From Gammaproteobacteria bacterium (GTDB lineage: Bacteria; Pseudomonadota; Gammaproteobacteria; UBA4575), in contig CBDCUI010000008.1 of the NCBI GenBank assembly GCA_965222615.1, forward strand, positions 928,001 through 992,000: 64,000 bases of DNA. The letters run 5' to 3'. A model generated the notes under the pieces. That model was given only the letters and a program-made list of their open reading frames with translations, was not told where the DNA came from and searched no databases. This document shows positions 11,006 through 12,040 of the stretch, piece by piece. The translations under genes were made by a program, and so were the position numbers. Position 1 is the stretch's first letter. Each line of letters begins with the position of its first letter.

Positions 11006-12040
11006 ATGTATCACGGTGATATATCAAGTAGTAAAGATGCTGTAGGTGTTGCAGTAGTAAATTATAAAATGCCACGTCTACATACTAAAGCGGATGTTCT
11101 CGAGAATGCTCGCAACATTGCAAACATGATTGAGGGCATGAAAGTAGGCTTACCTGGAATGGACCTGGTCATTTTTCCTGAATATAGCACGCATGGAATT
11201 ATGTATGATGAAAAAGAGATGTATGAAACTGCATCAACTTGTCCAGGTGAAGAGACTGAAATTTTTGGTGAGGCATGTCGGAATGCAAAAGTTTGGGGAG
11301 TGTTTTCACTAACCGGTGAACGTCATGAAGACCACCCTAACAAAGCGCCGTATAACACACTGATTTTGATGAATGATAAAGGTGAGGTTGTACAAAAGTA
11401 CCGTAAAATAATGCCTTGGGTTCCGATAGAGGGCTGGTATCCGGGTAACTGCACCTATGTTTCAGAAGGTCCAAAAGGATTAAAAATTAGTTTAATCATT
11501 TGTGATGATGGCAACTATCCTGAAATTTGGCGTGATTGTGCAATGAAAGGTGCAGAATTAATTGTCCGTTGTCAGGGTTATATGTATCCGTCAAAAGACC
11601 AACAGATAATGGTGGCTAAGGCGATGGCATGGATGAATAACTGCTATGTTGCGGTGGCCAATGCTACTGGATTTGATGGCGTATATTCTTACTTTGGCTA
11701 TTCATCCATTATTGGATTCGATGGACGCACGCTTGGGGCGTGTGCTGAAGAGGATATGGGAGTTCAATATGCGAACTTATCTACTTCGCTCATCCGCGAC
11801 GCACGTAAAAATCAGCAATCTCAAAATCATCTGTTCAAACTTCTACATCGTGGTTACACAGGTAAAATCAATTCTGGTGAAGGTGATCAAGGTGTTGCAG
11901 AATGTCCCTATGATTTTTACAAGAAGTGGATTACTGATCCTGATGCAACCCGTGAAATGGTGGAATCCATTACTAGAACCACGGTTGGTACAGAAGAGTG
12001 TGAAATTGAGGGTATTCCAAACCCAAAAACACATCGTTAA
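11006..12040 (+). CDS. amiE: Aliphatic amidase AmiE
   Basis: [22 protein letters not shown], catalytic [39 protein letters not shown]. Confidence 0.96.

Follow-up and report, generated by a model that had tools for sequence, protein, structure and literature searches.

The aliphatic amidase (AmiE) encoded in a stretch of 64,000 nucleotides from a Gammaproteobacteria bacterium (contig CBDCUI010000008.1, positions 928,001 to 992,000 of the forward strand; hereafter the window) ends in His-Arg, and its gene is followed by genes for a CbbQ-type ATPase and a CbbO-type adaptor (together CbbQO). Sequence comparisons make it probable that this terminal dipeptide is a conserved and portable engagement tag for the downstream CbbQ-CbbO pair, and that this pair is an amidase-dedicated remodeller whose client is AmiE and not Rubisco. 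The preliminary description of this DNA had already supposed that AmiE shares the engagement tag of Rubisco and is the client; that inference now finds comparative support, since tail and genes co-occur almost completely and follow the same rule as in Rubisco.

The C-terminal end of AmiE

The end of amiE, at window positions 12002-12040, reads GAA ATT GAG GGT ATT CCA AAC CCA AAA ACA CAT CGT TAA, and the product of the open reading frame (ORF) at 11006-12040 (344 aa) ends in ...KTHR, so that the DNA and its translation both agree with the earlier statement that the protein ends in His-Arg. The identity of the protein is clear: it matches the NCBIfam model NF009802 with 710 bits (cut-off 427) over model positions 1-342 of 345, it can be aligned at 80-83% to the solved amidases 2plq and 2uxy of the PDB, and it carries E59, K134, E142 and C166, which are invariant across 43 homologues. 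We take E59, K134 and C166 to be the catalytic Glu-Lys-Cys triad and E142 to be the second Glu, in the numbering of the solved amidases. Of the 2365 ORFs with 150 aa or more in the genome to which the window belongs, 7 (0.30%) end in His-Lys or His-Arg (H[KR]), AmiE being one of these seven; given this background, a single match is weak evidence when taken alone.

AmiE tails and neighbouring genes across amidase loci

Three sets of AmiE loci were compared. Species-representative genomes gave 572 confirmed AmiE loci, and set A took the best 80 of these (83-94% identical), which come from Alpha- and Gammaproteobacteria, including Burkholderiales, and from metagenome-assembled genomes of Verrucomicrobia, Acidobacteria and Polyangia; Pelagibius litoralis DSM 21314 and an Ancylobacter species are among the organisms represented. 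Set B came from 400 evenly sampled genomes of the window's phylum; 23 of them, not counting the window's own genome, encode an AmiE above the cut-off, and 9 kb on each side of amiE were examined. Set C added 19 further loci, obtained by evenly sampling 400 genomes each from the window's class and from an alphaproteobacterial class; two duplicate contigs (L181, identical to L071, and L186, identical to L034) were dropped, and two matches with set B coordinates were left out. With the window itself, the census comprised 121 distinct AmiE loci (80 from set A and 40 from the even samples), at which the presence of cbbQ or cbbO was scored from tblastn matches in the examined flank.

The AmiE proteins of these loci end in H[KR] in 98 cases, in His-Ala (HA) in one case and otherwise in 22. 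A CbbQ and/or CbbO match was found in the flank of 91 of the 98 H[KR] AmiEs and also beside the HA AmiE (92/99 overall), and an amidase-type cbbQO was found beside none of the 22 non-His AmiEs of the census. The even samples alone (40 genomes) gave the same picture, with cbbQ, a cbbO-like gene or both no further than 9 kb from 17 of 18 H[KR] AmiEs and no amidase-type pair beside the 22 others; when AmiE tails with and without cbbQO are compared, the enrichment of the terminal H[KR] is thus nearly complete. The cbbQ gene lies downstream of amiE in every case, and it follows amiE directly and on the same strand at 47 of the 78 CbbQ-positive loci of sets A and B (the first 103 loci). Considering these data together with the conservation of the tail, we judge it likely that tag and CbbQO are functionally coupled.

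One locus, L118, was considered as a case of a non-His AmiE with an amidase-type cbbQO and was rejected, since Pfam matches revealed a cbbR-cbbL-cbbS-cbbQ-cbbO Rubisco cluster. The Rubisco of this cluster ends in ...KLDVSHR, while the tail of the AmiE is acidic and its gene is followed by one for a Clp-like AmiB. At this locus (G136:C10), amiE-amiB immediately adjoins the Rubisco cbbQO cluster, placing two AAA+ systems and their clients side by side.

Conservation within the tail

Among 98 distinct AmiEs of the His class, the penultimate residue is His in all 98, and the last one is Arg in 89, Lys in eight and Ala in one. Directly upstream of this dipeptide, positions -3 to -7 each accept 10-12 different residues, and the distance between a conserved Gly-Ile-Pro (G-I-P) and the tag varies from 5 to 10 residues. 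When all alignment columns of the whole protein were scanned for class-specific ones, defined by a residue that 90% or more of the His class has and no more than 25% of the others share, just three were found: H343, R344 and V139. Within the tail, purifying selection acts on the terminal dipeptide only, and an invariant end after a free spacer is the pattern expected for a recognition dipeptide anchored at the terminus, mirroring the mutagenesis of Rubisco described below. An AlphaFold2 model of the AmiE monomer (43 sequences; mean predicted local distance difference test score, or pLDDT, of 66) is unreliable for the tail, with residues 319-344 below 50.

Outside the tail, the third class-specific column, V139 (window 11420-11422), holds Val in 97 of the 101 AmiEs of the His class and mostly Cys or Thr in the others; it lies between W138 and E142, in the active-site region.

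The same terminal rule in Rubisco

According to Tsai 2015 (PMC4660213), CbbQO-dependent Rubiscos need a C-terminal H-K/R whose position is critical: the loss of one or two terminal residues or the gain of an Ala after the motif abolished both activation and ATPase stimulation, an Ala placed before the motif merely weakened activation, and the last residue was replaceable while the penultimate His was replaceable only in part. In the same study, an 11-mer tail peptide stimulated the ATPase, and the MIDAS (metal-ion-dependent adhesion site) of CbbO and a carboxylate on the Rubisco surface were likewise required. A passage of a 2017 review (PMC5437159) agrees on the tail requirement.

We looked at Rubisco in 40 CbbQ loci from the phylum sample, chosen for taxonomic spread. 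All 22 Rubisco large subunits encoded within 6.5 kb of cbbQ (at 17 of these 40 loci and at L118) have a penultimate His; those of form I end in HK (10) or HR (1), and those of form II in HK (6), HA (4) or HR (1). The preliminary description had claimed that form I and form II Rubiscos linked to cbbQO share a terminal HK/HR needed for activation, which is borne out by the mutagenesis (PMC4660213) and by the penultimate His of these 22 proteins. As a control, we used 17 NorQ-like loci, at which CbbQ is 55-63% identical and the CbbO match is limited to the VWA (von Willebrand factor A) domain: none of the 45 ORFs of at least 200 aa upstream of these NorQ-like genes ends in H[KRA].

The genome of the window does encode a single Rubisco (C8:834671-836137), about 104 kb from amiE. 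Its large subunit ends in ...TTAAA; next come a small subunit and CbbX (TIGR02880, 523 bits, cut-off 459). Because this Rubisco is CbbX-linked and ends in TTAAA, the CbbQO of the window cannot be serving Rubisco here. A Rubisco large-subunit match was also absent from two of the five HR-AmiE genomes checked, both of which are 100% complete.

Five other full-length cbbQO loci (L134, L167, L168, L171 and L173) have neither Rubisco nor amiE in their flank, nor a neighbouring H[KRA]-ended ORF of at least 150 aa within about 7 kb. Either the clients of these orphan loci lie further away, or the tag is absent from some CbbQO clients.

The amidase operon of the window and its CbbQO

The features of the window that bear on this proposal are as follows:

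8901-10058, + strand: amiC-like amide sensor with a periplasmic-binding fold, 385 aa (Pfam Peripla_BP_5, 482 bits)
10061-10663, + strand: amiR antiterminator, 200 aa, AmiR_N and ANTAR domains (Pfam PF21332, PF03861)
11006-12040, + strand: amiE, aliphatic amidase, 344 aa and stop codon (NF009802, CN_hydrolase domain)
12020-12031, + strand: variable spacer of AmiE, N339-T342, separating the tag from the conserved G-I-P (positions -3 to -7 diverse)
12032-12037, + strand: candidate C-terminal tag of AmiE, His343-Arg344 (CAT CGT), with the stop codon immediately after (sequence and translation)
12051-12092, + strand: RNA hairpin just 3' of the amiE stop codon, inside the 102-nt amiE-cbbQ spacer (folding)
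12143-12940, + strand: cbbQ-type MoxR AAA+ ATPase, 265 aa (AAA_5 and CbbQ_C)
12951-15251, + strand: cbbO-type adaptor, 766 aa; its C-terminal VWA domain (about 14679-15179; Pfam VWA) has an intact MIDAS
15293-17230, + strand: acs, acetate--CoA ligase, consuming acetamide-derived acetate (NF001208, 1095 bits)

The window's cbbQO genes come after amiE and are not part of a Rubisco (cbbL/cbbM) cluster. CbbQ matches AAA_5 with 116 bits and CbbQ_C with 113 bits, has the Walker A motif GPTGCGKT and the Walker B motif YLDE, and scores higher against the solved chains of CsoCbbQ (5c3c, 417 bits) and AfCbbQ2 (6l1q, 387 bits) than against those of NorQ (312 and 298 bits). A FastTree phylogeny of 129 CbbQ sequences, in which the support of deep branches is weak, needs two label changes to account for the 83 amidase-linked rows, and the mean path from these rows is 0.99 to the Rubisco-linked and 1.64 to the Nor-like ones. 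By these measures, the amidase-linked CbbQs are closer to the Rubisco-type CbbQ than to NorQ.

In CbbO, the VWA domain comprises residues 577-743 (Pfam), and residues 470-764 align to the VWA domain of NorD. The MIDAS residues D582, S584, S586, T662 and D690 are invariant across 43 amidase-linked homologues. A modelled complex of two AmiE chains with CbbO 470-766 and Mg scored 0.20 against a mark of 0.32 and counts neither way.

The hairpin that follows the amiE stop codon has a minimum free energy of -32.2 kcal/mol (z = -3.7), and none of 200 shuffled sequences was as stable; a consensus terminator and promoter scan of 10600-12200 called no terminator. This hairpin is possibly a partial terminator or an mRNA stabiliser that keeps CbbQO sub-stoichiometric to AmiE.

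Three other features of this genome were noted. A second CbbQ-family gene (C8:50146-50958, 58% identical) lies beside aprB-aprA with no adjoining VWA gene; it groups with the NorQ-like set, and a NorD-like VWA match is found far off, at C8:1061287-1062222. Downstream of acs, a 206-aa ORF (window 17366-17986) has no Pfam or NCBIfam match.

AmiB-type ATPases and plasmid-borne operons

A different ATPase accompanies many of the other amidases. Just after 10 of the 22 non-His AmiEs (L114, L118, L119, L121, L123, L129, L130, L178, L180 and L183), as well as beside amiE on plasmids (L196-L200), we found an AmiB-type protein with AAA_2 and ClpB_D2-small domains. These ten AmiEs form a well-supported clade on the AmiE tree, and the AmiEs linked to AmiB have Lys/Glu-rich, non-His tails, in most cases with the conserved endings ...LPxxGKEKxxx and ...EEKEA. 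The preliminary description had ascribed an acidic tail to Pseudomonas AmiE, and tails without the terminal His are indeed what AmiEs of the amiE-amiB operon type have. In Rhodococcus, the AmiB-type ATPase precedes amiE, and the tails of Rhodococcus and Arthrobacter deviate from the ...LPxxGKEK... type. In the genome of the window, no amiB lies beside amiE; the only matches to an AmiB query are distant ones of 34-38% identity, found over 500 kb away or on a different contig.

Eight of 66 plasmid records with an AmiE match were also inspected, chosen for taxonomic spread. On plasmid p3 of Brucella anthropi, AmiE ends in ...TAHR and is accompanied by annotated CbbQ-family and VWA genes and by acs. 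On a plasmid of Acidithiobacillus caldus, AmiE ends in ...RHK, and the VWA gene is annotated in two pieces that are followed by IS5 transposases. On the plasmids of Rhodococcus (2), Arthrobacter, Parageobacillus and Klebsiella, the AmiE tail is of a non-His kind and the ATPase, an 'AAA family ATPase', is of the AmiB type; that of Bacillus methanolicus has neither. Altogether, the type of AmiE tail seems to be matched to the type of ATPase partner.

The Brucella anthropi plasmid also carries a second CbbQ-family and NorD pair (L193:1-2269), about 6 kb upstream of its amiE-cbbQ-VWA-acs genes.

Evidence that weighs against the proposal

Several observations weigh against the tail of AmiE being a tag for CbbQO, the first being that the case for binding between the two is comparative throughout. 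No cbbQO was found in the examined flank of seven H[KR] AmiEs, two of which lie on contigs too short to judge. The six of these seven genomes that were searched all encode a CbbQ elsewhere, 61-69% identical to that of the window; for L029 and L070 its coordinates fall just past the examined flank, whereas L017 and L182 have their closest CbbQ on a different contig or at a distance of over 180 kb. Next, at L174, L176 and L179 and on the megaplasmid of Acidithiobacillus caldus, amiE is followed only by a shorter VWA gene, with no cbbQ nearby. In these variant operons (L174:10051-11901, L176:10108-11895, L179 at about 10179-11939 and L195:9141-10931), the VWA/CbbO-like protein has about 595-616 aa and no cbbQ lies within 9 kb; the AmiE tails are SHR, SHK, GHK and RHK, and several CbbQ paralogues lie elsewhere, so that the adaptor may borrow a CbbQ motor encoded in trans. 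Moreover, many AmiEs manage without any CbbQ, so that the amidase is in no general need of this helper: among 16 genomes with a non-His AmiE, a CbbQ homologue at E <= 1e-20 is missing from 13, and the other three have only 53-56% identical ones.

Two further points concern the way in which the tag would be read. The literature covered does not state where on CbbQO the tag docks. Our scan of the whole protein found no acidic column specific to the His class as a candidate MIDAS ligand; a residue conserved in all AmiEs could serve.

The last points concern ancestry. On an AmiE tree built from core columns without the tail (IQ-TREE quick, LG+G4), the state of the tail changes six times on the best tree, and only three independent pairs lie on well-supported branches; these three are concordant, but with so few a sign test cannot reach significance. 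Shared ancestry may explain part of the correlation between tail and cbbQO: the amidase-linked CbbQs are nearly one group, so the correlation may partly reflect the co-inheritance of one operon type.

Alternative explanations

The strongest alternative follows from this last point: the His-Arg end and cbbQO would have been co-inherited in one transferred lineage of amiE operons, and the His would persist because AmiE itself needs it, for instance for packing of the hexamer, for stability or for binding a metal, while CbbQO would not read it. The almost single clade of amidase-linked CbbQs, the small number of well-supported tail transitions (just three) and the seven H[KR] AmiEs without a nearby cbbQO would all fit such hitch-hiking. 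However, an internal role would not explain why the last two residues are fixed while the spacer is free in both length (5-10) and sequence. Rubiscos of form I and form II, whose tails are unrelated, also end in this H-[KRA]-COOH precisely where cbbQ adjoins, and there this end is read by CbbQO according to the mutagenesis (PMC4660213). Finally, wherever the tag seems to have been lost on the tree, cbbQO is absent as well; in the clearest contrast between near relatives, within one clade with 98% support, L128 ends in ...APHR and has cbbQO, whereas L117, L124 and L127 have other tails and no cbbQO. Weighing both sides, we regard co-inheritance without recognition as unlikely.

A second possibility is that the amiE-linked CbbQO works on something other than AmiE, for example Rubisco in trans, Acs or the AmiC-AmiR switch, and that the AmiE tail is irrelevant. 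This genome does have a Rubisco, acs follows cbbO, and amiC and amiR belong to the same operon. Yet the Rubisco comes with its own CbbX and without a tag, and two of the five HR-AmiE genomes lack a Rubisco. The linkage of acs is limited to the closest relatives and one Brucella anthropi plasmid, amiC and amiR also accompany non-His AmiEs that lack cbbQO, and amiE is the sole gene that is constantly found with this type of cbbQO, with cbbQ usually next to it. Another client thus seems very improbable to us.

As for a chance likeness of two residues, which the preliminary description had kept as a caveat and which a dipeptide prior of about 0.3% per protein would allow, we give it practically no credence: it is contradicted by a penultimate His that is invariant in 98 sequences and by a tag that tracks cbbQO, with nearly complete separation, over 121 loci.

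Proposed mechanism and significance

If AmiE is indeed the client, its engagement may be pictured on the model of Rubisco. A CbbQ hexamer with one CbbO would use the MIDAS in the VWA domain of CbbO to dock on the AmiE oligomer, the complex would recognise the free H-R-COOH end of AmiE, the ATPase of CbbQ would thereby be stimulated, and ATP would then be spent on remodelling AmiE. We infer the physical binding of AmiE to CbbQO by analogy with the CbbQO of Rubisco. What the remodelling would be for is a matter of speculation: our preferred guess is that it might reopen an active site (Cys166) blocked by a dead-end ligand or an acyl adduct, as for Rubisco, and the alternative is that it might help with the assembly of the AmiE hexamer or the maturation of the oligomer.

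We also entertain a broader idea, while leaning slightly towards doubting it: H-[K/R]-COOH may be a portable tag that is read by the whole clade of CbbQ proper and that was gained independently by Rubisco and by the amidase. The amidase would then be a second self-trapping enzyme in need of an ATP-driven activase, with two AAA+ repair machines, CbbQO and the Clp-like AmiB, each matched to a type of tail. On this broader view AmiB, a 30-year-old orphan, would gain a function, and the tag could be used for predicting or engineering new CbbQO clients.

To our knowledge, the clients of MoxR/VWA machines are mostly unknown and the way in which these are chosen is an open question, the CbbQO of Rubisco being among the few cases with a defined recognition element that we know of. 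Aliphatic amidases are used industrially and as reporter enzymes; their activity can be followed with a simple colorimetric assay, and AmiE expresses well in E. coli. If our proposal holds, CbbQO would have a second and readily assayed client, and a model combining tag and MIDAS could be tested directly through tail swaps. ATP-dependent repair or maturation would also extend to aliphatic amidases, and there would be a definite hypothesis for the AmiB of the classic Pseudomonas amidase operon.

Comparison with known systems

What appears to be new here is a remodeller of the CbbQO type that would be reserved for a client other than Rubisco, one with the same tag; the comparison of tails and loci supports it. 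Our literature search, which covered few subscription journals, found no publication linking the C-terminus of AmiE to CbbQO. The closest report (PMC13209695, 2026) describes wastewater isolates with a plasmid-borne amiE-amiC-amiR operon that has CbbQ/NorQ-like and NorD-like genes, whose roles it calls unclear; the gene linkage is the same as here, and the relevant passage of that report is silent on the AmiE C-terminus and on the Rubisco tag.

The Rubisco CbbQO of Acidithiobacillus ferrooxidans (Q1O1 and Q2O2; PMC4660213) resembles the system of the window in its AAA+ protein of about 265 aa with AAA_5 and CbbQ_C domains and in its adaptor, which has about 770 aa and an intact MIDAS in its C-terminal VWA domain. 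The genes also lie directly downstream of the client gene, and the end of the client is a position-fixed H-[KR] with an invariant His and a replaceable last residue. Unlike Rubisco, the proposed client of the window is a Cys hydrolase of the nitrilase superfamily, with no sugar-phosphate inhibitor and no known counterpart of the acidic loop residue of Rubisco; moreover, the amidase-linked CbbQs form a group of their own, and an activase role is here putative.

NorQ-NorD, which is described in part of PMC13036017 as a MoxR/VWA chaperone for the insertion of FeB into nitric oxide reductase, shares the two-protein architecture and a VWA domain that can be aligned between NorD and the CbbO of the window. 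In contrast, NorD has about 640 aa, the NorQ-like genes are more distant, none of the 45 ORFs upstream of 17 such genes ends in H[KRA], and AmiE has no metal centre to load.

Finally, the amiEBCRS operon of Pseudomonas aeruginosa and its AmiB ATPase (Wilson et al. 1995, as cited in a passage of PMC12591593, which terms AmiB a 'hypothesized chaperone') is likewise an aliphatic amidase operon with amiC, amiR and a gene for an AAA+ ATPase just after amiE. AmiB, unlike the CbbQ of the window, is Clp-like (AAA_2 and ClpB_D2-small) and has no VWA partner, and the AmiEs linked to it have tails other than H[KR].

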